Source of the DNA: a virus
Taxonomy: Duplodnaviria; Caudoviricetes
Virus record (IMG/VR): IMGVR_UViG_3300038365_000077
Span: 1 to 44,002 of that record
Direction: 5' to 3' (one strand)
Length of the DNA: 44,002 nt
In this document: piece after piece, positions 14,400-42,823 of the stretch
How the letters are laid out: the number at the start of each line of letters is the position of its first letter
Numbering within the stretch: the stretch's first letter is position 1
Notes under the pieces: generated by a model
Told to the model about the DNA's origin: nothing
Database searches by the model: none
The model's input: only the letters and a program-made list of their open reading frames with translations
Translations under genes and position numbers: made by a program

Positions 14400-14936
14400 T
14401 TAAAATAAGTGTTGTATATATCTGCGCGGATCCGGGTGCCCTAACCGGTAGTCGTGGAACACGTACACCCCCTGCATGACGCCGAGTCTACCCCCATCCA
14501 TTCTTACTTTGTCCGTGAACTCGGAATCGAACCGGATGGAATTGTCGGAAAACCGGTACTTCTCCCATGTTTTCTTTTTGAAAACCATCAGGAACCCCGC
14601 AATATTGATGTCCGTCTCAACAACATCCGTGTACCTCTCCCGTTGCAATCTCTCCGCAATGGCCTTGTGATATAACACGTCGGTGTTGTCGCAGAAATCC
14701 CCCGGTCGCTGGTGATGAGATGCGATCCGGTTCGTCAGGCATCCATACACCTGGAACTCATCGTCGTGCTCCGCGATCACATCGGTGATCTGCTTCTTCG
14801 AATCGGGAAGCAGGAACAAGACGTCCGAATCCGTCACGCATATCCAATCCTCGGGATCAGGCACCAGTGCACAATGGTCATTGTGCGACTTGCCGATGCG
14901 CTTCAACGGGTCGAATGGTGCGAAGTAGTAGATCAT
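14400..14936 (-). CDS. Glycosyltransferase (GT-A fold, single domain)
   Basis: WICVTDSDVLF DxD motif, IAGFLMVF, VYVFHDY; ATGA overlap supports start at 14936. Confidence 0.7.
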   Translation of the reverse strand: MIYYFAPFDPLKRIGKSHNDHCALVPDPEDWICVTDSDVLFLLPDSKKQITDVIAEHDDEFQVYGCLTNRIASHHQRPGDFCDNTDVLYHKAIAERLQRERYTDVVETDINIAGFLMVFKKKTWEKYRFSDNSIRFDSEFTDKVRMDGGRLGVMQGVYVFHDYRLGHPDPRRYIQHLF

Positions 14937-16399
14937 TTGTGTTTGAACCATGCCACGTTGTTTGCTTTTTCATCCTTGAAAACCGTATTAACCTGGGTGC
15001 CGTGTACGACGCGCCCTTCGAAATGTTTCCTTACGATATAGTTGAACAGCCCCATGTCACCATCACCGCACCCTGGTCTATCATTGTAGAACTTGGCCTC
15101 CGCGACCGAATTAAAGTAGAACAGCAGGAATCTGCCTATGAACTCGATCACCACGTCCACGCTTCCGCCACACAGCCCGGCATTAAGCAACACGTCGGTA
15201 TTGTCCTTCATGAACTCCTGCAACTCCCTGTTCGGGTGATGTTTTAACATCCACTCGCAGCCTACTATCTGTGGCTCATCTCCAACATAGAGGATGCCGT
15301 CTTTCATCGAATTGAAAGGATTCCGCAACATGACCACGTCCGATCCGTCCGTTATGAAGACCTTGTCGATATCGCTCCTGTGTTCAAGTAGGTACCGGTA
15401 ATAGCTCACCCATCGCTGAAAGTAGATGTTCCGGACATGCGTTTCAACCTTCACGTACTCGACATTGCCTTCTCGAGAAGGCCCGAGTGAATCCGAAACT
15501 ACAACTAGCTCCTGACCCTTCATCGAATCGATAAGGGCCTTAAGGATGTTCTTGTCCGCCGGCATCGGTGCATCGCGCTGCGGGTCGTCTATGCCTGAAA
15601 ACAGACAGGTCAGGATGACGTTTTTCTTCTCCATGAACGGGATGTACTCTCTCGAGTCCTTCCGCTCATCGTACAGTCGTGCATTTCTCTCGATCCATTT
15701 CCGCCTCTCGGCGCCAACAACGGTTGATCCCTCGTTGCTCGTGTGCTCGTCGCGCGAATAGATCAGATCATAACTGCCGGGAACGTCCATATACCTGAAC
15801 GAAGTCAGCCCGGCATTATAGATCCTGTCGGACAGGGACGGGTGCTCGTATCCCCACAGGCCGAACACGGGATCCATGCCGCCTACCCTGTCGAGGCATA
15901 TCCTCTTGTAGTAGCACATGCACCCGCGAACATGGGAGTAGGCTACGATAGAACTGTCCTGGTACAGAACCATCATGTCGTTAAGTTTTGCGGCCCCTTG
16001 TGCTTTGAATTCCGCGAAGATATAGTTCAGGTGAGGCTCCCGGCTCTCGACATAAGGCTTGTACCAGTCTGCGCACTTCGGATAGCAGTCGTCGTCGAAC
16101 AGAAAAAAATGTTCGCACCCTGCCTTGTATAGCAGTTCGAAGCACTTGTTCTTCGCCCTTGCGACACCTACATTCTGCTCATACCGGAAGGTAGCCTCCG
16201 GGCATGGACTCGTACTCGCATCATCCACAATCACCAGCACCGAGTTGGCCGGTGCAAATTTTCTTATCTCCGTGTAAGTCTTCCGGAATATCTCATGCCG
16301 GTTACGCGTCGTGATCGCAATACCGATCGGCGGGGAGCCGACAGCCGAGATCTCGTCCTTCAAGGCATCCAATTTTTGTTTAATCTGTTCTACATTCAT
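14933..16399 (-). CDS. Two-domain glycosyltransferase (GT2 plus second GT-A-like domain)
   Basis: IAITTRNR, IVDDAS, FLFDDDC, GLWGYEH; second domain VFITDGSDV...LNAGLCGG...DMGLFN. Confidence 0.85.
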   Translation of the reverse strand: MNVEQIKQKLDALKDEISAVGSPPIGIAITTRNRHEIFRKTYTEIRKFAPANSVLVIVDDASTSPCPEATFRYEQNVGVARAKNKCFELLYKAGCEHFFLFDDDCYPKCADWYKPYVESREPHLNYIFAEFKAQGAAKLNDMMVLYQDSSIVAYSHVRGCMCYYKRICLDRVGGMDPVFGLWGYEHPSLSDRIYNAGLTSFRYMDVPGSYDLIYSRDEHTSNEGSTVVGAERRKWIERNARLYDERKDSREYIPFMEKKNVILTCLFSGIDDPQRDAPMPADKNILKALIDSMKGQELVVVSDSLGPSREGNVEYVKVETHVRNIYFQRWVSYYRYLLEHRSDIDKVFITDGSDVVMLRNPFNSMKDGILYVGDEPQIVGCEWMLKHHPNRELQEFMKDNTDVLLNAGLCGGSVDVVIEFIGRFLLFYFNSVAEAKFYNDRPGCGDGDMGLFNYIVRKHFEGRVVHGTQVNTVFKDEKANNVAWFKHK

Positions 16400-16412
16400 G
16401 TGTTTTGTCGTT

Positions 16413-18020
16413 TTAAATCGTTGCCGAATATCGTGGATTGGACAGGTACGATCCAAGCGACTCGAGCATCGCGATCACCCCGTCGATCTTTTTTTCCTCG
16501 AATTTTTTGGAGGGCTTCACGTTTCCGTTGTTGTCACGGGCCATCACGACGTTGCGGAAACAGTGCCGTGTAATAATGTTGTTGTCGATAACCGCCCTGC
16601 CTGACAGGATTATGCGCTCCAGTTCCTTCGTGGGGCGGTTGAAGTTGCCCAGATTCTGCCCGTATGGCGCCATGTTTATACCCTTTTCTGTTGCATTTAT
16701 CACGAACTGCGTGGCATTCCACGGGTCATACGCGACGGAACTGAGGAATAGCAGATTATGCGCCTCCATCAGGTCGTTTAGGATGTAATCGTAGTCCGTC
16801 ACGTTGCCGGGCGTGAGGGTCAGCAGTCCGAGCCGGCGCCACTCCGAATAGGTTTCCCTGAACCGTTTTTCGGTCAGCGCGGCCTGCGGAAGGTAATATT
16901 TTGTCAGAAAATGAAACTTGTCGTCCTGAGGGATCATGTAGTTCACACAGGTAAGGTCCGATGTGGCGGAAAGGTCGATACCTGCGTAAGCCTCCGCATC
17001 CTTGAAGTCCTCCAGCCTGATATCCTTCGAAGCCTCGATGATGTAGCTGTCCGGGATCCACACTTCGGACGAGTCGCACCAGATGTTCAGGTTCTTCGTC
17101 TTCACGTTCACCTCGTCAGAGGGGGTGTTGATCGCCTTGCGTATCTCTTTCTGCAAATATTGAGGCCGAACGGTAACGTTAAGGTTCGGATTGCTTTTGA
17201 TCCATACCCTGGGATCCTTCCAGTCGTCGTCCTTATCCAGGGTGAACACCGCGCAGAAAAACGAATCGTCCTCTTTCAGATTGTGGAGAATATCGACCGC
17301 CGTGTCCCTCAACTCGTAGCAGGGACCCAGCTTGTCAAATCCGGCAGTCGTGATGATGATCGCGAGCGGGTTCTCCCGGTTGCCCTGCCCGGACTCGAGC
17401 ACGGCCTTTACGCTGTTGTTCTTTGCCGCATGGTACTCGTCCAGGATGAACATGTGCGGGTCGGGGCCATCCAGCTTTGTGGAGTCGGATGCCAGAACTT
17501 TCAGAAACGATTTTGTGGCGTCGAATTTCACGGTATCGCGGTAGACGGTTAGAAGTTTTCCCTTCGGATCCAGGCCGGTTGCGAAGTTGGAGCACAAAGG
17601 CCAGGCGGATATTTTCACCTGGTCGCGGGAGTTGGCCGCGAAATAGATCTCCGCGCCATCCTCTCCGTCGTTGATCAGACCATCCAATCCCATGCCCGCC
17701 GCGAGTGCCGTCTTTCCGTTCTTCCTCGCGATCTCGATGTACGCCGTCTGCGTGAGCCTGGTGCCGTCGTCGTTGAAAAATCCGTACACGCTTGCAACGA
17801 TCCACTGCTGCCACGGCTCCAGGAGAAAAGGCTTTCCGGAGTGCCGGGACTTGAAGTGCTTCAATATCGAATAGAACCGGATCTTGTCATCCACCACGTC
17901 CTCCCTGAATTCGTAGAGATCCATGAGGGAGAAGAACCGTTCGCAGGCAAGCCTTATCAGCTCGCATGCGACGATCTCCCCGGATATGACCTGCTGCGCG
18001 TACTGGACGTATTGTTTCAT
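16413..18020 (-). CDS. terL: Terminase large subunit
   Basis: LEPWQ, ARKNGKT Walker A, ILDEYH Walker B, GIDLS, KKIDG. Confidence 0.95.
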   Translation of the reverse strand: MKQYVQYAQQVISGEIVACELIRLACERFFSLMDLYEFREDVVDDKIRFYSILKHFKSRHSGKPFLLEPWQQWIVASVYGFFNDDGTRLTQTAYIEIARKNGKTALAAGMGLDGLINDGEDGAEIYFAANSRDQVKISAWPLCSNFATGLDPKGKLLTVYRDTVKFDATKSFLKVLASDSTKLDGPDPHMFILDEYHAAKNNSVKAVLESGQGNRENPLAIIITTAGFDKLGPCYELRDTAVDILHNLKEDDSFFCAVFTLDKDDDWKDPRVWIKSNPNLNVTVRPQYLQKEIRKAINTPSDEVNVKTKNLNIWCDSSEVWIPDSYIIEASKDIRLEDFKDAEAYAGIDLSATSDLTCVNYMIPQDDKFHFLTKYYLPQAALTEKRFRETYSEWRRLGLLTLTPGNVTDYDYILNDLMEAHNLLFLSSVAYDPWNATQFVINATEKGINMAPYGQNLGNFNRPTKELERIILSGRAVIDNNIITRHCFRNVVMARDNNGNVKPSKKFEEKKIDGVIAMLESLGSYLSNPRYSATI

Positions 18021-23846: not shown

Positions 23847-24244
23847 CGGACCCCCGTCTTGAGATTGTTGTCGGTCATTATTCTCCAGAACTTTTCACCG
23901 TTCAGCTCGACCGGGTAAGCACTGATCATGAATGCCGCCTTTGATTCCAGCATGTCGATGTCGGAGAATATCTCCCGGACCATCCCGACACTGTTGACCG
24001 ATAGCGTTCCCGAGCTGCGGTTCTGCCACACTTTGAATCCCTCGTCCGCTTTCGTGATATGTATATACCAGTCGTGCGGCCTGTCCTCATCTCGGCAGAA
24101 CTCCAGTCTGGTACCATGTTCGATCCCGGTTAAATCGCCTGCCAGTGAGGAGAATGTGATCAACCCGACGGCATTCATTTTGACGAACGCCTCACCTCTT
24201 TTCTGTTTCCCGACCGTGTCGGGAGTGTACTTTTTAAGTCTCAT
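23843..24244 (-). CDS. Hypothetical phage protein
   Basis: 133 aa, coupled to neighbours. Confidence 0.75.
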   Translation of the reverse strand: MRLKKYTPDTVGKQKRGEAFVKMNAVGLITFSSLAGDLTGIEHGTRLEFCRDEDRPHDWYIHITKADEGFKVWQNRSSGTLSVNSVGMVREIFSDIDMLESKAAFMISAYPVELNGEKFWRIMTDNNLKTGVR

Positions 24245-24603
24245 ACCTTTGCCTCCTTTATTCTGTGGAGGATCTCCGTGTAGCCGGCCAGATCCACCAG
24301 GTTATCCCTCTTGTGCTTGTAACTCTCCCGCGCAAGTTTCACCGCCATCAGCACGACGGTGCAGTCTTCCGCAGTCAGCTCCTTTTTCAGTATTGCCGAG
24401 GCAATGGCGGCAATGTGCCTGAAATTCTCCACAGGGTCGCTGTAGTCGACCTGTCTATCCCCGTTCACGATCCTGTCAGCCTCCAGTAGGATGCTTTCTT
24501 TTGCCGGCAACCTTATATCAGCGGTCGAAGAATATGCCGAAGTCACTTTTGTCCCGTCAAAGTCCTTCGGAAACCATTTGTTCTCTTTGTCCTGTAAGCT
24601 CAT
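24241..24603 (-). CDS. DUF6378-like phage protein
   Basis: EADRIVNGDRQVDY...KLAR...DNLVDLAGY. Confidence 0.75.
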   Translation of the reverse strand: MSLQDKENKWFPKDFDGTKVTSAYSSTADIRLPAKESILLEADRIVNGDRQVDYSDPVENFRHIAAIASAILKKELTAEDCTVVLMAVKLARESYKHKRDNLVDLAGYTEILHRIKEAKV

Positions 24604-24739
24604 AACTTCAAAATTGTTTATATGGTACTTTTTAAATGCTCCTTAAACTCGCGTATTACACCCTCCAACTTATTTAGTTTTGCAACATACTGTACGATAC
24701 TATCATTTTTTGTTGCGTATATTTCGGTGTTACCGCCAA

Positions 24740-24919
24740 TTAAACAGACGGCTCATAAATCACATCAATTTCCCATAGGTGATGAATAAAATTCGCCATT
24801 AAATTAGCGGCTTCATCAATTTTGCCGTCAGGAATAATGTCAGCGTTTTCATCAGCATTTCCGATATATACAAATGCTTCCTTTTTAATTTCTTCTAATG
24901 TCATTTTTTTAAGTTCCAT
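24740..24919 (-). CDS. Cassette 1 microprotein (59 aa, acidic)
   Basis: MELKKMTLEEIKKEAF...YEPSV fills the cassette. Confidence 0.65.
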   Translation of the reverse strand: MELKKMTLEEIKKEAFVYIGNADENADIIPDGKIDEAANLMANFIHHLWEIDVIYEPSV

Positions 24920-24939
24920 TTTGATTTAAAATTAACTGG

Positions 24940-25037
24940 CGGTAACAGCGGTTTAGCGTAATGCCGCAATCCAAGCCAGTGGTTAATAATTTACATTTTT
25001 ACGAGCGGCACATACGCCAAGCCGCATAACGTTAGCG
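24940..25037 (+). other. attC-like site A
   Basis: CGGTAAC-A-GCGGTTTAGCGTAATGCCGC...GCGGCACATACGCCAAGCCGC-ATAAC-GTTAGCG. Confidence 0.75.
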
Positions 25038-25043
25038 GAAAGG

Positions 25044-25289
25044 CTACGAAACCTCCCAACCATTATCTTTAGCATATTTTAAAGCTGCGGACTTAGTCGG
25101 AAACCAAGCTTCAATAATATTTTCCATATCAGAACAACCTACCCATAGCAAGTAGTAATTGACACCTTCCGCATATTTCAATTTGAGTTTTTCACTTTTG
25201 GGAGGATTTTTAAAGCCAAAACATTCCCGATAGGTTTTTCCTTCTTTCTTTCTATTTTTCAACAAGTCAACCCGCCCTTCCGCTAACAT
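25044..25289 (-). CDS. Cassette 2 protein (81 aa; start uncertain, could extend through attC B)
   Basis: MLAEGRVDLLK...GWEVS; ATG overlaps the attC core. Confidence 0.6.
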   Translation of the reverse strand: MLAEGRVDLLKNRKKEGKTYRECFGFKNPPKSEKLKLKYAEGVNYYLLWVGCSDMENIIEAWFPTKSAALKYAKDNGWEVS

Positions 25290-25411
25290 CGGCTTGCCGT
25301 AATGGCTGTTTAAATCTTTATTCATCTTTAGTAACATTTTGAACATTAGTAATAAATTCGGCTTTTGTGCTTCTATATACGCCACTAACGGCAAGCCGTT
25401 TCCCGTTAGCG
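25281..25411 (+). other. attC-like site B
   Basis: CGCTAAC-AT-CGGCTTGCCGTAATGGC...GCCACTAACGGCAAGCCG-TTTCCC-GTTAGCG. Confidence 0.75.
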
Positions 25412-25418
25412 GTCAGTG

Positions 25419-25532
25419 CTACCTTGCCTTAGTTCTTCGGTCATATACCGCCCAAACTTCGTCTTGTTGTGATGGATTAAGGTCAGCGAAATACTTACCG
25501 TAAAGTTCCTGTGCAATTTGATTGATGTTCAT
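25419..25532 (-). CDS. Cassette 3 microprotein (37 aa)
   Basis: MNINQIAQELYGKYFADLNPSQQDEVWAVYDRRTKAR with AT-rich leader. Confidence 0.6.
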   Translation of the reverse strand: MNINQIAQELYGKYFADLNPSQQDEVWAVYDRRTKAR

Positions 25533-25557
25533 TGTCTTAAAATTTACCGCACCGAAC

Positions 25558-25652
25558 CGCTAACAAGGCATTTACGCTACCCCTGCGGACGATACGCTGT
25601 TCAATATTGGTTTTGTAATTACTGGGCAGCGCAAAGCCGTGAACCGTCAGGT
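25558..25652 (+). other. attC-like site C (degenerate core GTCAGGT)
   Basis: CGCTAAC-AA-GGCATTTACGCTACCC...GGGCAGCGCAAAGCC-GTGAACC-GTCAGGT. Confidence 0.6.
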
Positions 25653-25718
25653 GGCATTATTCCTCCCTCAAATGCTAAATCGCTTTCTGCTGGCAAATAT
25701 TCTTCTGCTGTCATTCCC

Positions 25719-27724
25719 TTAATCTTTTTTGTAATACTCTGTTTCATATCCGTCAGCCCGGAGCAGCAGCCCCGGCGCCCAGCTGATCGGCTCGCCCATG
25801 ATCAGGCAAGCCTCGTCCATCGTCTTGCCGTCATACGGCTCCTCGATCACCACCTCGTCGTGCACGTGCATGACGATATTAAAACCCTCCTCCGCAAGCC
25901 GGAGCATCGAGTGCGCCAGACAGTCGCGGGCGATCGCCTGCACAATGTTTTCCACCAGCTTTCCCCCGTATGTCTCCTGCTTCTCCCACTTGCGTGTTGT
26001 CTGGTTGATGCCCCAGTACGTGATCGAGTCTCCGCCGAAGCGGTTCCTCCCGATGCCCGGTGTAGCGTAGCACAGGCTCCGGCCCGATGGCAGGGTGATC
26101 CACATCAGTCCCTTGTCCCACTTGAACCGGCAGCCTCGAACTTCTACCATACGGCCTATGTTGCCTATCACGGCCATAGCTGCCTCCTGTATGTCGTACC
26201 ACAAGCGGACGATGTTAGGGTTTGCCAGCCTCCAACTGTCCACGATCTCCTGCATCTCCGGCTCCGACAGCCCCATCCGCTCGCCTCCCATGGTCTTGAG
26301 CGCGCCGACGCCGCCTTGATAGCCAAGTGCCAATTCCGCGATTTTTCCCTTCTGGCGAAGCGGACTGCCCTTGTCTATGCTGTCGATGGGCACCTTGAAC
26401 ATTTGCGACGCCGAGGCCTCGTAAATCTTGCCGTGGCTTGCGAACACGTCGAGCCTCCACTTCTCCCCCGCAAGCCACGCAGTCACACGGGCCTCTATGG
26501 CCGAGAAGTCGGCGACGATGAAGCGATGCCCCTCCGGTGCGACGAACGCCGTCCGGATGAGCTGCGAGAGCGTGTCGGGCACGTTGCCGTAGAGCAACTC
26601 GACCAACTCCCTGTCGCCCTTGACTACCGTCTCGCGTGCAAGGTCGAGGTCGGGCAGGTGGTTCTGCGGCAGGTTCTGCACCTGCACCAGGCGGCCCGCC
26701 CACCGACCGGTTCTCGAGGCACCGTAGAACTGCAGCAGCCCCCGCACCCGCCCGTCGGTGCACACTGCGTCCAGCATGGCCTGATACTTCTTCGTCGAAG
26801 TCTTCGCCATCTCCTGCCTTAATTCCAGCACCCGGGTGACTTCTTCGGAATCCGAGTTCTCCATCATCCCTGGGATGTCGGTCTTGCTGAGGGATGTCAC
26901 CTCCTCGCCCGTCTGCTCCGTCAGCCACTCCTTCAGTTGTGCGGGAGAGTTCGGGTTGTCCAGTCCGGTGAGCTCCGTCGCTTCCGCCGTGAGGATCTCC
27001 TTGTGATCGTCGTCCATGCGGATGGCGTTCTCCACCATCCGCCGGTCGATCAGCACGCCGGTGCCGATGATCCGCTGGTCCAGCAGCCACAGCTCCCGCT
27101 CCTTCTGCGGGATCGTGAACCATCTCTCCTTGTTGCGGATCGCCCTTTCGGTCTCCACGTCCTGCCTGCAATAATCCTTGAACAGCTCCCATTTGTCGGG
27201 GTCGTGGTGTGGCAGGTTTCGCGTTCTCATGCCGTTCGACTTCGTCGGCTTGCATGGCATTGAGAAGTAGCGTATCAGCGCCCGCCCCGCCGCCATCTTC
27301 TGCTGCTCGAGGTTGAGAGCCTTGGCAACCCCGTCGAGGCTCATGGGAAGCCCCAGCATGGCGCTCTTGACCATCGTGCATTCCCACTGATCCGCGGGCA
27401 GGGTGGAGATTTTCCAGTCCCACCCTCTCTCCGGGGCCGGACCTTTCAGCATCGGAGAAGCTATTTTTTTCAGTGCTTCCCGAAGACAGGTGATTTCAAA
27501 GTTGGCGTTGAATGCCGTCTTCAGCACGGTAGGGTTGATCAGGTCGGAGTAGACGTCCGGCGGAAAGGTTTCACCGCTCGAAAGGTCGATGACCTCCACC
27601 GGCCCGTCGTCGTAGGCATACGCAAACAGCAGGATCTCGAAGTCTTCCGCCTCAGCGTATTTGTACACGCCCGTTTTTGTCAGGTCTTCACTGCTGTAGG
27701 TTTCAATGTCAATGGATAGGGTTT

Positions 27725-27728
<4 letters not shown>
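25719..27728 (-). CDS. Phage family A DNA polymerase with 3'-5' exonuclease
   Basis: IDIETYS, AFNANFE, DFSAIEARV, RQKGKIAELALGY, HVHDE. Confidence 0.93.
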
Positions 27729-28358
<630 letters not shown>

Positions 28359-28362
<4 letters not shown>

Positions 28363-28886
28363 GGCTCTACCGCTTTGGTGTAAAAATCAGCTTTCATAAA
28401 ACAAACCCAGTGGGTCTTTTGAGATTTACCGGAAGGGTGTCCAAACAGTGGCCGATACATTGTAAGCCCAAGTATTTCGCTTAATCGAATGTCAGTTTCA
28501 TTCCACTTGAATATTAGAACTCCTCCTTCTTGTAGGACCCTAAAGCACTCTTCGAATCCTTTTTTAATATCATCTTTCCATGTTGTTTTGTCTAATTTGC
28601 CATACTTAATTGCCATGTACGAATTATCGCCTAAGGATGTAAGATGTGGAGGGTCGAATACTACAATTTTAAAAGAATTGTCTGGGTAAGGCATAGCTCT
28701 AAAGTCTGCAACTACGTCAGGGTTACATTCAAATTGCCTTTTATTCTTCCCTGTGCCCACAATTACGGGTTTAACCCTTCTGCGATCTTGAAATAGCACA
28801 TGCGGATCCGTTTTATCAAACCAAAACATCTTTGCTCCGCAGCAGGCGTCCAATACTGATTTTTCTGAAAACGACTCCCTGTTCAT
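28359..28886 (-). CDS. SAM-dependent methyltransferase (amino-MTase-like, DPPH)
   Basis: LDACCGAKMFWFDK, VVFDPPHL, LIFKWNE. Confidence 0.85.
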
Positions 28887-35564: not shown

Positions 35565-37013
35565 ATGCAAAGTACATTCAGAATTCTTTTCTATTTGAAA
35601 AGAGACAAACAAAAAGCAGACGGCACAGTTCCTATTTGGTGTCGCATTACAATTGACGGGCAGGCAGCACGATTTAATACCAAAACAAGTCTTAATCCTG
35701 ATCTGTGGGATGCAAAAGCTGCTAAAGCAATTGGTAAATCGAAAGAAGTTGATGCTATAAACTCTTTATTGGACGCCATCAATGCAAGTATCCACAAAGT
35801 ATATTACGATTTACAAATCCTGGAAAACAACGTTAATGCTGAACTGGTCAAAAATCGTTTTCTTGGTTTGGAGGTGAAAAACCAGACTGTGCTTGAATTA
35901 TTCAAGCGTCATAACGAAGATATCGAAAAACAAGTTGGAATTAACAGGACAAAGGCAATGCTTCAAAAATATGAAATCGCTTACAAAAGAGTATCCGATT
36001 TTATCCAGGAGTATTATCATTTATCGGATATCTCTTTGAAAGATGTTAATCATGATTTTCTGAGAAATTTTGAAGTATATCTGGTGACAAGTTGTAAATG
36101 TGGGCCTAATACCACAGCAAAGTTTCTACAACGCTTCCGGACCATCATTATTTTAGCCAAGAATAACGGTTGGATTCAGAAAGATCCATTTGCAAATTTT
36201 AAAATCAGATTTCAGAAAGTTGATCGTGGTTACCTTACTCAAGAACAAATTGAAATTTTAATGAATAAAGATTTTTCTTTAAAGCGCCTGGAACAAGTAA
36301 GGGATATTTTTGTTTTTTGCTGTTACACGGGGTTGGCTTATATTGATGTTAGTAAATTGCGTCAATCTAATATCCGTAAATCCTTTGATGGAAAACTGTG
36401 GATCATGGGTAAACGCGAGAAAACGGGGATAAGTTTTAATATACCGTTATTGGATATAGCGAAGGAAATACTGGACAAATATGCCGGGACACTGCCTGAT
36501 GACAAAGCATTACCTGTTTTGAGCAACCAGAAAATGAATTCATACTTGAAAGAAATCGGCACGTTGTGCGGAATTAATAAAGAATTAACCTTTCATCTTG
36601 CGCGTCATACTTTTGCGACCTTAACTTTAAGTAAAGGGGTTTCCATTGAAAGTGTGAGTAAAATGCTGGGACATTCCAATATTAAAACAACTCAAATTTA
36701 CGCCAAAATAACCGATGCAAAAGTCAGTAATGATATGGCCGCTTTTGCAAAGAAAATTGAAACACAACGGTCAGGTACATCTACAAAGATAGATTTATTG
36801 TTTGAGTGTTTGTCTTTAAGTGAAAAAATGATTTTATTCGGACTTCCCGGAACACTTTCTCACGACGAAGAAAGGGAGAAAAGAATAAATCAGATGTGGT
36901 TTACACTTTCCGAAGAAGAAAAATCGATCATGTGGAAAAACACTTTTGAAACGGATAAAGATATGATATTAAAGCCTATAAATACTATACATAAAATAGC
37001 TATCAACCAATAA
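35565..37013 (+). CDS. Bacteroidetes-type tyrosine integrase
   Basis: Arm-binding N-terminus, TGLAYID, HLARHTFAT, LGH, TTQIYA. Confidence 0.95.
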   Translation: MQSTFRILFYLKRDKQKADGTVPIWCRITIDGQAARFNTKTSLNPDLWDAKAAKAIGKSKEVDAINSLLDAINASIHKVYYDLQILENNVNAELVKNRFLGLEVKNQTVLELFKRHNEDIEKQVGINRTKAMLQKYEIAYKRVSDFIQEYYHLSDISLKDVNHDFLRNFEVYLVTSCKCGPNTTAKFLQRFRTIIILAKNNGWIQKDPFANFKIRFQKVDRGYLTQEQIEILMNKDFSLKRLEQVRDIFVFCCYTGLAYIDVSKLRQSNIRKSFDGKLWIMGKREKTGISFNIPLLDIAKEILDKYAGTLPDDKALPVLSNQKMNSYLKEIGTLCGINKELTFHLARHTFATLTLSKGVSIESVSKMLGHSNIKTTQIYAKITDAKVSNDMAAFAKKIETQRSGTSTKIDLLFECLSLSEKMILFGLPGTLSHDEEREKRINQMWFTLSEEEKSIMWKNTFETDKDMILKPINTIHKIAINQ

Positions 37014-39844: not shown

Positions 39845-40783
39845 ATGGATTACAGATTAGAATTATTATCGGACGACGATTTTGAGGACTTGATAAATAG
39901 GATCTGCCAAAAAATCCTAGGAATGGGTGTTATTTCGTTCTCAAAAGGTAAGGACGGCGGAAAAGATGGCCGGTTTACGGGCAAAGCTGAGCGATATCCG
40001 TCATCTGAAAAACGGTGGGAAGGAAAATTTATTATTCAGGCAAAGCATACAGCCAATCCGATAGCATCTTGTAGCGATAGCGATTTTACTACTATTGTAA
40101 ATGGCGAAATAGAAAAGATAAAAAAACTGAAAGAGGACAACGAAATAGATTGCTATTTGTTATTTACAAACAGAAAGTTCACCGGCGTAAAAGGAGACGA
40201 CTTGAGGAACAAGATAATAAAAGACACCGGGCTTGAAAACGTGGAGATAATAGGAAAAGAGCTGATTAACGACCTCTATCTGAGTCCGCACAGAGATATT
40301 GTAAGAGAATTTCAATTGAATTTACTGCATATCCCCTTCGATTTTTCGGAATATGAAATAAAAAATATCATAGCCGAGTTTAAAGAAAGCTTAGGTGAAA
40401 TTTCGCCGGATATTAAACTTCAAGTGGAGAGAATTAAAACCGATTACGAAAGAATTGGGTTGGATGAAAAAAACGAGAAAAATGCGTTGAGCAAGGAGTA
40501 TTACGAAAACCAGATACTGGCATCGTCGTTGCAAGATTTCGAGAAAATAAACGCTTTTTTATCCGACCCCAGAAACGATGACTTAAAAGAACAGTTTTTT
40601 GATATTGCAACAGAGTTGAGTAATCTAATTCATATTCAACGAGATAATTTTCTTGCATTTGAGGAGATATTTATATTCATATACAAAAAAATATGCGACG
40701 GCGCGAAAGACATCAGAGGTAAAAGGCATATATTTACCTTGTTGCACTTTATGTATTGGGAATGCTACATCGGAATAAAATGA
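39845..40783 (+). CDS. lmuA: Lamassu/ABC-3C effector, Mrr-like nuclease plus CTD
   Basis: DDFEDL, GKDGGKDG, IIQAKH; C-terminal FMYWECYIG. Confidence 0.75.
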   Translation: MDYRLELLSDDDFEDLINRICQKILGMGVISFSKGKDGGKDGRFTGKAERYPSSEKRWEGKFIIQAKHTANPIASCSDSDFTTIVNGEIEKIKKLKEDNEIDCYLLFTNRKFTGVKGDDLRNKIIKDTGLENVEIIGKELINDLYLSPHRDIVREFQLNLLHIPFDFSEYEIKNIIAEFKESLGEISPDIKLQVERIKTDYERIGLDEKNEKNALSKEYYENQILASSLQDFEKINAFLSDPRNDDLKEQFFDIATELSNLIHIQRDNFLAFEEIFIFIYKKICDGAKDIRGKRHIFTLLHFMYWECYIGIK

Positions 40784-41022
40784 TAAAACCAGATAGATAT
40801 ACAGATCCTAAAATTTCAGTTATCAACATCAGTTCGCTGATTTTGAGCGAATTGAATGATTTTTATGCCATTCAATACGATAATTTATTGAAAAAGGTAG
40901 TAAAAGTATTGGGCGATGATGCTAAAAGCAATTTTCCGTATGCACTTAATTTTCTTTTTTTGTCAGATAGGCTGAAATACGACCGAAAAACGGATACATT
41001 CAAATCAAATGAAACTAAGTAA
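40780..41022 (+). CDS. lmuC: Lamassu/ABC-3C middle component
   Basis: 80 aa with ALNFLFL motif, coupled between effector and ATPase. Confidence 0.7.
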   Translation: MIKPDRYTDPKISVINISSLILSELNDFYAIQYDNLLKKVVKVLGDDAKSNFPYALNFLFLSDRLKYDRKTDTFKSNETK

Positions 41023-42823
41023 ACTATATTCCAACAGCGATTTATTTAAGGATGTAACATTTAAATTAAACGGATTGAATGTGATATATGCTGACGTAGT
41101 TACGGATATTGCCGATAAAAAAAACTCACACAATCTTGGAAAATCAAAACTTGCCGAATTGATAGATTATTTACTGATAAAAAAATTAGATAAAAAAAGT
41201 TTTCTGGCAAAAACCACAGACGCAAACAATGAACTTGCATTTGGCAAACACATTTTTTATTTGGAAATACTGTTAAATTCCGGCCAATACCTTACCATTC
41301 GAAGAGATTTGCAGGAAGCTTCAAAAACATCGTTCAGCCTGAACGCACAATCTACCCACGCCTACACACCACCGCTGAATTGGGAACACGAAAACTTGGG
41401 AGTTGCAGTTGCTAAGGAGAAGCTGGCAGAGTATTTGAATTTTGATTTTTTCAAAAATAAACCCTATGACTACCGGAAAGCCATCAATTACTGCATCCGG
41501 ATGCAACCCGATTACGACGATGTGTACCGATTATCAAAATTTAAAGGAGGAAAAGACATTGATTGGAAACCTTTTATGTTTGACTTGTTGGGTTTTGACG
41601 GTGAAGTATTACGCCAAAAATATGAAAACGATAAATTACAGGAAAAAATAGAGGATGATATTGCTACATTAAGACGGGATTTCTCGGTAGATGACACAAA
41701 CCGCGATGAAATTGTAGCTCAAATCAACTTACAGGAAAGCAAAACACAAAATGCCGAAGCAAAAATAGACCAACTTAATTTTTTTGAGCAAGACAAAGAG
41801 CTGATAGAAAAAGGAATGGATAAAATTGAAAATAGTATTTCCGACCTAAATACACTCTCTTATAACCTTAATTTCGATATTGAAAAATTACGCGGTTCAA
41901 TAAAAAACAATTTTGCTTTTGACATCAACAAGGTAGAAAAAGTATTTGAAGAGTTTAAACTCTATTTTCCCGAAAACCTGAAAAAAGAGTATTCAGACCT
42001 TATCCGGTTCAATGAAGAATTGACGAAGGAGCGAAATAAATTACTGACATCTACTTTGGCGAAAAAAAAGAAAGAACTTCAAGAGGTAAACTCAAAACTC
42101 GAAAAGCTGAATAAAGAAAAAGAAAACTTACTGAGTTTTCTGCAAGATACTGATACGTTCAGACGATTGAAACAGTACCAAAAAGAGCTGGCAAAGCTGG
42201 CTTCTGAATTGATACAATTAAAGGAGAGATTAAGGGTAATTGACCTTATTATTCAGAAAAACAGAGAAAAAGATTTGTTGAAAAAGGAGATAGAAACCAC
42301 CATTGATACCATAAAAGACATATCGCATCATACGGAGAGAAACGAAAAATACGAATTGATAAGAAAACTGTTTTCTGAATACTTTCATCATATTATGGAC
42401 GAAGATGCTTATATTTCGTGGACGGTTAATTCCAACAACAACGTAGATTTCAATCCGCCCGTAATAAAAACAAAAGACAGTTTATCAAAAGATACCGCCA
42501 AAGATGAAGGACGCACATACAGGAAAATCCTCTGCGTAGCCTTTGACTTAGCTATCTTGGTGGCTTACAACAGAGAGAGTTATTTCCGTTTTGTGTATCA
42601 CGATGATGTCCTGTCGCAACAAGATAATGGGATAAAAAATCGTTTGCTGGAATTGGTACACAGCATCACGTCAAAATACGATATTCAGTATATTCTCTCG
42701 GCAATAAAATCAGATTTGCCAACAGATGAAGATGACAATTTCATCTATTTTTCCCCCGAAGATATTGTCTTGGAACTTAACGACAGGGATGCATCGGGAA
42801 CTTTGTTCGGATTTGAGTTTTAA
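41009..42823 (+). CDS. lmuB: SMC-like ABC ATPase (DUF2326)
   Basis: HNLGKS, central coiled coil, LCVAFDLA, FVYHDD, QYI. Confidence 0.8.
   Translation: MKLSKLYSNSDLFKDVTFKLNGLNVIYADVVTDIADKKNSHNLGKSKLAELIDYLLIKKLDKKSFLAKTTDANNELAFGKHIFYLEILLNSGQYLTIRRDLQEASKTSFSLNAQSTHAYTPPLNWEHENLGVAVAKEKLAEYLNFDFFKNKPYDYRKAINYCIRMQPDYDDVYRLSKFKGGKDIDWKPFMFDLLGFDGEVLRQKYENDKLQEKIEDDIATLRRDFSVDDTNRDEIVAQINLQESKTQNAEAKIDQLNFFEQDKELIEKGMDKIENSISDLNTLSYNLNFDIEKLRGSIKNNFAFDINKVEKVFEEFKLYFPENLKKEYSDLIRFNEELTKERNKLLTSTLAKKKKELQEVNSKLEKLNKEKENLLSFLQDTDTFRRLKQYQKELAKLASELIQLKERLRVIDLIIQKNREKDLLKKEIETTIDTIKDISHHTERNEKYELIRKLFSEYFHHIMDEDAYISWTVNSNNNVDFNPPVIKTKDSLSKDTAKDEGRTYRKILCVAFDLAILVAYNRESYFRFVYHDDVLSQQDNGIKNRLLELVHSITSKYDIQYILSAIKSDLPTDEDDNFIYFSPEDIVLELNDRDASGTLFGFEF

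Follow-up and report, generated by a model that had tools for sequence, protein, structure and literature searches.

The system closest to the array described here is the integron, whose integrase gene intI has been defined by the I2 insertion (PMC2426708, in the part available to us) and whose canonical attC sites carry two or three extrahelical bases near L'' with a 5-6 nt spacer on each arm (PMC5027507, likewise in part). By standard tools almost no integrons are found in Bacteroidota (bioRxiv 10.1101/2022.02.28.482270, accessible portion), and none were found in Elizabethkingia anophelis (PMC11523902, accessible portion). Clusters of attC-like sites without an integrase are nevertheless already published from phage genomes: the sections of Qi et al. 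2023 (PMC9892861) covered here report 17 phage CALINs and activity of IntI1 on five of six sites, treat the sites as ordinary attC for IntI1, and say nothing of a cognate enzyme, of reversed polarity, of fused leaders or of exchange between related phages. The system described below is likewise absent from the available parts of 10.1101/2022.02.28.482270, 10.1101/2024.07.02.601686, PMC8618304, PMC13616975 and PMC11523902, and in the literature that we searched, which included few subscription papers, no I2-less enzyme, reversed polarity or leader fusion was described.

The array and its relatives share with integrons a RYYYAAC/GTTRRRY-type core, a folded-strand site with strand bias, self-complementary cassette ends, a half-site beside a recombinase of PF13495 plus PF00589 composition, and a crossover that falls within the 5' AAC on whichever strand folds better. 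They differ in that the array-linked recombinase is without the IntI insertion, the sites have no conserved extrahelical bases and a one-sided 4-nt spacer bulge, and the phage ORFs lie on the folding strand, each after its own hairpin, which can supply the start codon. The array works like an integron, yet departs from one in integrase, extrahelical bases and polarity. Xer-like recombinases (XerA/XerC/XerD; NF040815) resemble the array-linked enzymes in size and in having no insertion, and NF040815 is the best NCBIfam match for seven of eight of these; the array-linked enzymes, however, sit beside hairpin arrays, and only one of the eight passes the NF040815 cutoff. Xer acts on double-stranded dif sites.

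The window, by which we mean the whole 44,002-nucleotide stretch of DNA analysed, is a virus record with a completeness of 77%. It holds a tailed prophage with its genes on the - strand (head, tail, terminase, VapE, SNF2, PolA, DUF2800) and a GC content of 52%, adjoined past the prophage by DNA of 35% GC. A family search placed Arm-DNA-bind_5 and DUF3945/DUF4099 genes in this flank, families that we take to be associated with Bacteroidota, and on that ground the phage host is presumed to be a member of this phylum. The array, a block of 39% GC, occupies the polA-DUF6378 interval of the replication operon, and the preliminary description was right to place cassettes in such an operon of a prophage. 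Along the coding strand it reads stub, hairpin A, 37-aa ORF, hairpin B, 93-aa ORF, hairpin C, 59-aa ORF and half-site D, with units (hairpin plus following ORF) of ~241, 374 and 302 bp:

25719..27755, - strand: family A DNA polymerase (PF00476), upstream flank
25619..25747, - strand: fixed stub after polA, reading into the first hairpin, the outer anchor of the array; common to the relatives P0018 and P0019
25556..25654, - strand: hairpin A, attC-like, core TGAC instead of TAAC; covariance model E 7.1e-6, folds weakly alone
25405..25564, - strand: cassette 1 body with 37-aa ORF (25419-25532), from end complementarity
25279..25413, - strand: hairpin B, attC-like, ~125-nt class, carries the cassette 2 start codon; z -4.8, alignable with 53 phage and bacterial sites
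25031..25287, - strand: cassette 2 body; 93-aa ORF 25044-25325, its first 12 codons in the 3' arm of hairpin B by translation
24938..25039, - strand: hairpin C, attC-like, ~90-nt class; covariance model E 3.9e-9
24729..24946, - strand: cassette 3 body with 59-aa ORF (24740-24919); 91% identical copy in phage L206
24700..24737, - strand: site D, attI-like terminal half-site (TAAC, non-G, ~5 nt, ATATACGCA), without a full partner arm
24729..24732 and the next 15 bases, - strand: position of half-site D
24241..24603, - strand: DUF6378 protein (PF19905), downstream flank

The three complementary end pairs quoted in the preliminary description are all present. Complementary bases number 14/16 at the ends of the cassette 3 segment (24729-24946), 13/16 for cassette 2 (25031-25287), and 9/9 and 10/15 for cassette 1 (25405-25564); in the first two the start pairs best with its own end (13/14, as against 7-10 crosswise). 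GTT...AAC segments with 9/9 end complementarity occur three times in 24601-25720 and four times in the whole window. Chance can be excluded as the origin of these three, because 1000 dinucleotide shuffles of 24601-25720 gave a mean of 0.045 such segments and reached three in 0/1000. Set against shuffles, folding is strong for hairpin B (z -4.8 on the - strand) and moderate for hairpin C (z -1.7/-2.5), while hairpin A does no better than shuffled sequence (z -0.6/+0.3). A covariance model built from 54 sites, with hairpin B in the training set and A and C outside it, matched all three on the - strand (B, E 2e-18; C, E 4e-9; A, E 7e-6); below E 1 it found nothing further in the window except the reverse of B, and site D did not match it. 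The three palindromes first proposed to separate three tiny ORFs are therefore recovered, with half-site D added as a fourth site; the ORFs are present too, though the middle one is 93 aa long and starts inside hairpin B. From AAC to GTT, sites A-C measure ~85-125 nt, inside the attC range of 57-141 nt, which some other members of their family fall below or exceed. Rfam returned no family at threshold for the array region or for 20 related loci, and the exact patterns of hairpins A and C matched 0 viral contigs.

Judged from sequence, the sites of the window belong to a Bacteroidota-wide family. Pattern scans returned at least 121 and at least 123 viral loci and at least 121 genome loci, many high-GC matches in the viral scan with at least 121 loci being due to chance. 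Among the genome matches listed, 77 of 80 loci are titled Bacteroidota or Ignavibacteria, and in a sample of 151 genomes, drawn from the order to which one Bacteroidales genome belongs, 99 match the covariance model. Being of the 125-nt class, the model missed the shorter sites of phages Leef_1 and P12002L, which were assigned by eye. Across 54 aligned sites, compensatory change is seen in 19 of 20 stem pairs and 92% of cells pair, the first ten stem pairs having been partly selected by the site detector and the next nine being free of selection. All 54 have AAC/GTT, with flanking R/Y letters loosely kept. Two G.T pairs fall on one strand (54/54 and 52/54), the one that is the coding strand in phages; a folding asymmetry in 143 of 177, partly selected by the detector, was also recorded.

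The sites did not prove to be canonical attC: the 3' arm pairs over 20 columns with no conserved bulged base, and the spacer bulge is one-sided, with 4 nt on the 5' arm and none on the 3' arm (4-to-0). We accordingly give very little credence to an ordinary CALIN recombined by a canonical IntI of the host. Such an explanation would draw on the fit of the core to the attC R box and on the phage sites recombined by IntI1 (five of six in the part of PMC9892861 covered), but the sole IntI1 failure there, P12002L_attC1 of a Polaribacter phage, has by our own reading of Table S3 the shape of the present family, conserved extrahelical bases are lacking, and no IntI lies beside any array examined. The strand assigned as bottom for P12002L_attC1 in the sections of PMC9892861 consulted is the same as ours.

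Comparison of the polA-DUF6378 interval across relatives, proposed in the preliminary description, found it not to be invariant. One of 80 polA-related loci is close (L001, 93% identical over polA and 86% over DUF6378), and its interval is a different 449 bp without sites; the array itself was matched by 0 of the 80 and by no GenBank phage, and among 401 bacterial genomes two matched, over polA only. Two further relatives, P0018 and P0019, known from their proteins only, share the stub after polA and change sequence right after the AAC/GAC core codon, presumably continuing into other hairpins; one of them keeps the same GAC codon as the window. Cassette 3 recurs at 91% identity in the unrelated phage L206, where the match spans exactly GTT to AAC and the hairpins on both sides differ from those of the window, and in phage L115 a hairpin 90% identical to hairpin C precedes a different cassette start. 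Phages L245 and L276, both complete and 99%+ identical in their backbones, are set apart by two indels, 439 and 476 bp long, each of which is one unit, a hairpin and the body following it. Their breaks fall in TAACG with 5-7 nt of shared sequence, which puts the crossover on the folding strand, at its 5' AAC. Breakpoints at the GTT/AAC cores, as originally anticipated, are thus seen in the comparisons with L206 and P0018/P0019 and between L245 and L276, and we hold it highly probable from these alignments that cassettes are exchanged at the core.

The same comparisons bear on a block captured once from a low-GC phage and now frozen, with its sites as relics. The GC content of the array (39%, against 52% for the prophage), the change of core A to TGAC and the lack of an array-type recombinase in the window would all suit such a history; cores B, C and D are intact, however, and in P0018 and P0019 the stub is retained while the sequence beyond the core codon is another, even where that codon is the same GAC, so that we consider a frozen relic improbable. 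A separate candidate, in which the array interrupted a single gene, is unsupported: without the array 76 codons stay open in one frame (24621-24731 plus 25647-25747), but P0018 and P0019 both leave that frame and the downstream piece has no convincing relative in the fetched loci.

To define the mobile unit, 258 cassettes (181 viral, 77 bacterial) were cut from all loci after dropping exact duplicates. In 15 pairs of homologous bodies the upstream hairpin is shared in five, the downstream hairpin in none and neither in ten, whereas hairpins drawn at random attain 80% identity 0.9% of the time. Together with the L245/L276 indels, this argues against an ORF paired with the hairpin after it, as in integrons: as read from these sequences, the mobile unit in this site family is a hairpin plus its downstream ORF. 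The rule is not absolute, given the ten pairs sharing neither hairpin, the window's cassette 3 among them. Orientation divides phages from bacteria. Viral cassettes have the ORF on the folding strand in 115 cases versus 3 (37 of 155 uncalled), and bacterial cassettes on the opposite strand in 58 versus 2 (16 of 76 uncalled); bacterial members thereby match the integron unit, ORF then attC, in 58 of the 60 called.

Since the folding strand is sense in phages and antisense in bacteria, the structure appears to work as DNA rather than RNA. The hairpins could alternatively be RNA signals, for translation start or processing, with cassettes moved through recombination at the short core, driven by microhomology or an annealing protein, a mode of movement that has been proposed for the PeSL cassettes of T4-type phages. 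In phages the folding strand is the mRNA strand, many hairpins contain start codons, and this phage encodes a single-stranded-DNA-binding protein and a PD-(D/E)XK nuclease; set against these points are the same structure on the antisense strand in bacteria and the mere 5-7 nt shared at the L245/L276 breaks, and neither the cassette-specific complementarity of the ends nor the adjacency of recombinases would be explained. We judge such an origin quite unlikely.

An in-frame ATG in the upstream hairpin that reads via GTT into most of the body is found in 40, 24 and 7 of the 181 viral cassettes in the three frames, and cassette 2 of the window is a case of it. The protein cluster of cassette 2 has 18 members with at least three different leaders: among the 15 members listed, four have the leader of the window, nine a second, one a third and one none. 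Both main leaders are found with both body alleles, and bodies must therefore change hairpins over time. Hairpin swapping by exchange at the second box is plausible by analogy with attC, in which removal of the extrahelical bases raises top-strand recombination (PMC5027507, in the part available); homologous recombination between cassettes could yield the same mixing of leaders and bodies. We also entertain, with rather less than even confidence, a broader proposal in which Bacteroidota phages carry an inverted, IntI-independent integron running on a host enzyme, where the hairpin serves as translation start and bodies swap hairpins and N-terminal leaders because both ends recombine, the sites having no extrahelical bases. 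If so, protein variants would be made combinatorially, and ordinary genes would have a direct route to gaining a recombination site (cassette birth).

That no IntI lies in the window was confirmed by family search, which found no I2-less recombinase of the array type there either. The sole tyrosine recombinase in the window is an integrase at 35565-37013, and for that reason alone it might be supposed to move the cassettes; it is, however, of the arm-binding type (PF17293 plus PF13102), 26% identical to the array-linked enzymes, in a separate clade and 10 kb away, and we regard its involvement as extremely unlikely. Elsewhere, a tyrosine recombinase of the I2-less type is found 0.3-2.1 kb from each of nine arrays (six bacterial, three viral), and in the eight cases with an identified half-site it lies between recombinase and array; five further recombinases of this type had no cassette detected in their locus. 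All six array-adjacent recombinases scanned contain PF13495 plus PF00589. The enzyme initially assumed, an integron integrase, is likely not the one at work, as 10 of 10 aligned array-type sequences are without a 31-residue stretch of IntI1 (the I2 insertion). All eight array-linked enzymes score below the TIGR02249 integron integrase cutoff of 265 bits (139-208 bits), and the recombinase tree did not place the I2-less family relative to IntI1.

Supply of the recombinase in trans, by contrast with the nature of the enzyme, is a part of the preliminary description that gains support. Among 50 viral records, comprising 49 with arrays and L001 as control and not counting L214, five encode the I2-less enzyme; of 12 near-complete array phages two have it, and the other 10, like the window, are without it. 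Phages L245 and L276 are complete and have no I2-less recombinase, yet differ by exact units, which makes supply in trans the simplest reading; the recombinase likely acts in this way on the array of the window also. The pattern of site D is the same as that of the half-sites abutting recombinase genes in Leef_1 and in bacterial arrays, and it ends other phage arrays too; beside site D of the window there is no recombinase gene. By analogy, site D may act as attI.

Array and recombinase are found on the same phage in the cultured Polaribacter phages Leef_1 and Freya; the portion of the paper on these phages available to us (PMC8776804) interprets the integrase as pointing to lysogeny, and 'integron' and 'cassette' do not occur in it. 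In Leef_1 the array, half-site and recombinase occupy L450:5800-8864, and a related recombinase is present in Cellulophaga phage Ingeline. Of the Freya_10 and Freya_1 records (L459/L460), that of Freya_1 has as its first bases precisely the AAC of the half-site that precedes the recombinase, and the lengths of the records of ten Freya isolates vary by as much as 5 kb; the assemblies may break at a heterogeneous array. A complete platform, a recombinase followed by same-strand genes with four covariance-model matches, is carried by the Chryseobacterium plasmid NZ_CP041688 (L453:7776-16477), with an IS110 element and a group II intron inside the array. On the Acinetobacter plasmid NZ_CP041297 (L452:4067-6200), tet(X3) follows a truncated tnpF-type recombinase, 49% identical to the I2-less family; the segment has a site-D-like half-site before it, runs from GTTA to CTAAC and is followed by a truncated hairpin arm. 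From this arrangement tet(X3) looks like the first cassette of a Bacteroidota-type platform, of which no description was found in the literature searched.

Taken together, we consider it probable that the cassettes are exchanged by an I2-less enzyme acting in trans on folded DNA. The window would then hold a three-cassette array whose members vary at the TAAC core and are likely exchanged as circles; the catalyst would presumably be an integron-like tyrosine recombinase without the IntI insertion, supplied by the host or a co-resident phage; and the coding strand would fold as single-stranded DNA and be cut in the 5' AAC like an attC bottom strand. Cassettes would be transcribed along with the replication operon; no promoter-like site was found on the ORF strand by a sigma-70-type model, outside which Bacteroidota promoters fall. 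The one weak match to this model, near site D, runs opposite to the ORFs and scores lower than the mean of shuffled sequences.

If this mechanism holds, hairpin-cassette recombination would need neither the IntI insertion nor the extrahelical bases thought to define it, and Bacteroidota would hold a common cassette system shared by hosts and phages. It would surprise integron specialists, although the publication of phage CALINs (PMC9892861, in the sections covered) means that, of the phage-borne cassette platform first put forward, the presence of a cassette array in a phage is supported without being new. The window is a small member without an enzyme; what it contributes is support for a recombinase acting in trans and for the swapping of leaders. 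The same layout around tet(X3) suggests a route for gathering Bacteroidota genes, and because the cultured Leef_1/Freya phage-host pairs carry the complete system, the mechanism is testable now.

The microgenes themselves presumably serve accessory phage functions. The three cassette proteins gave only sub-cutoff Pfam/PHROG matches, the best score in an ESM Atlas search was 0.79, at chance level, and fold searches returned no match at E<=0.001. Cassette 1 has no exact copy in the protein collection and no relative in the fetched loci, and the cassette 3 protein falls in a cluster of 34. The AlphaFold model of the cassette 2 protein (pLDDT 77) has no significant fold match. Cassette 2 was not found in viral contigs; the best of four metagenome loci is a distant, hairpin-free ordinary gene (45% identity over 56 aa), which fits recruitment of cassette 2 from the phage gene pool.

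Three other features of the window are recorded here. Just upstream of polA two DNA methyltransferase genes stand side by side (27709-28886; PHROG 757 and 954). Between the terminase and portal genes, 14400-16456 encodes a 507-aa protein with weak glycosyltransferase matches and has a 183-aa gene of no assigned family. In the low-GC flank (39845-42823) an Mrr-like nuclease with an ABC-three-component CTD12 domain adjoins a DUF2326 gene, a pair that is probably a defence system.
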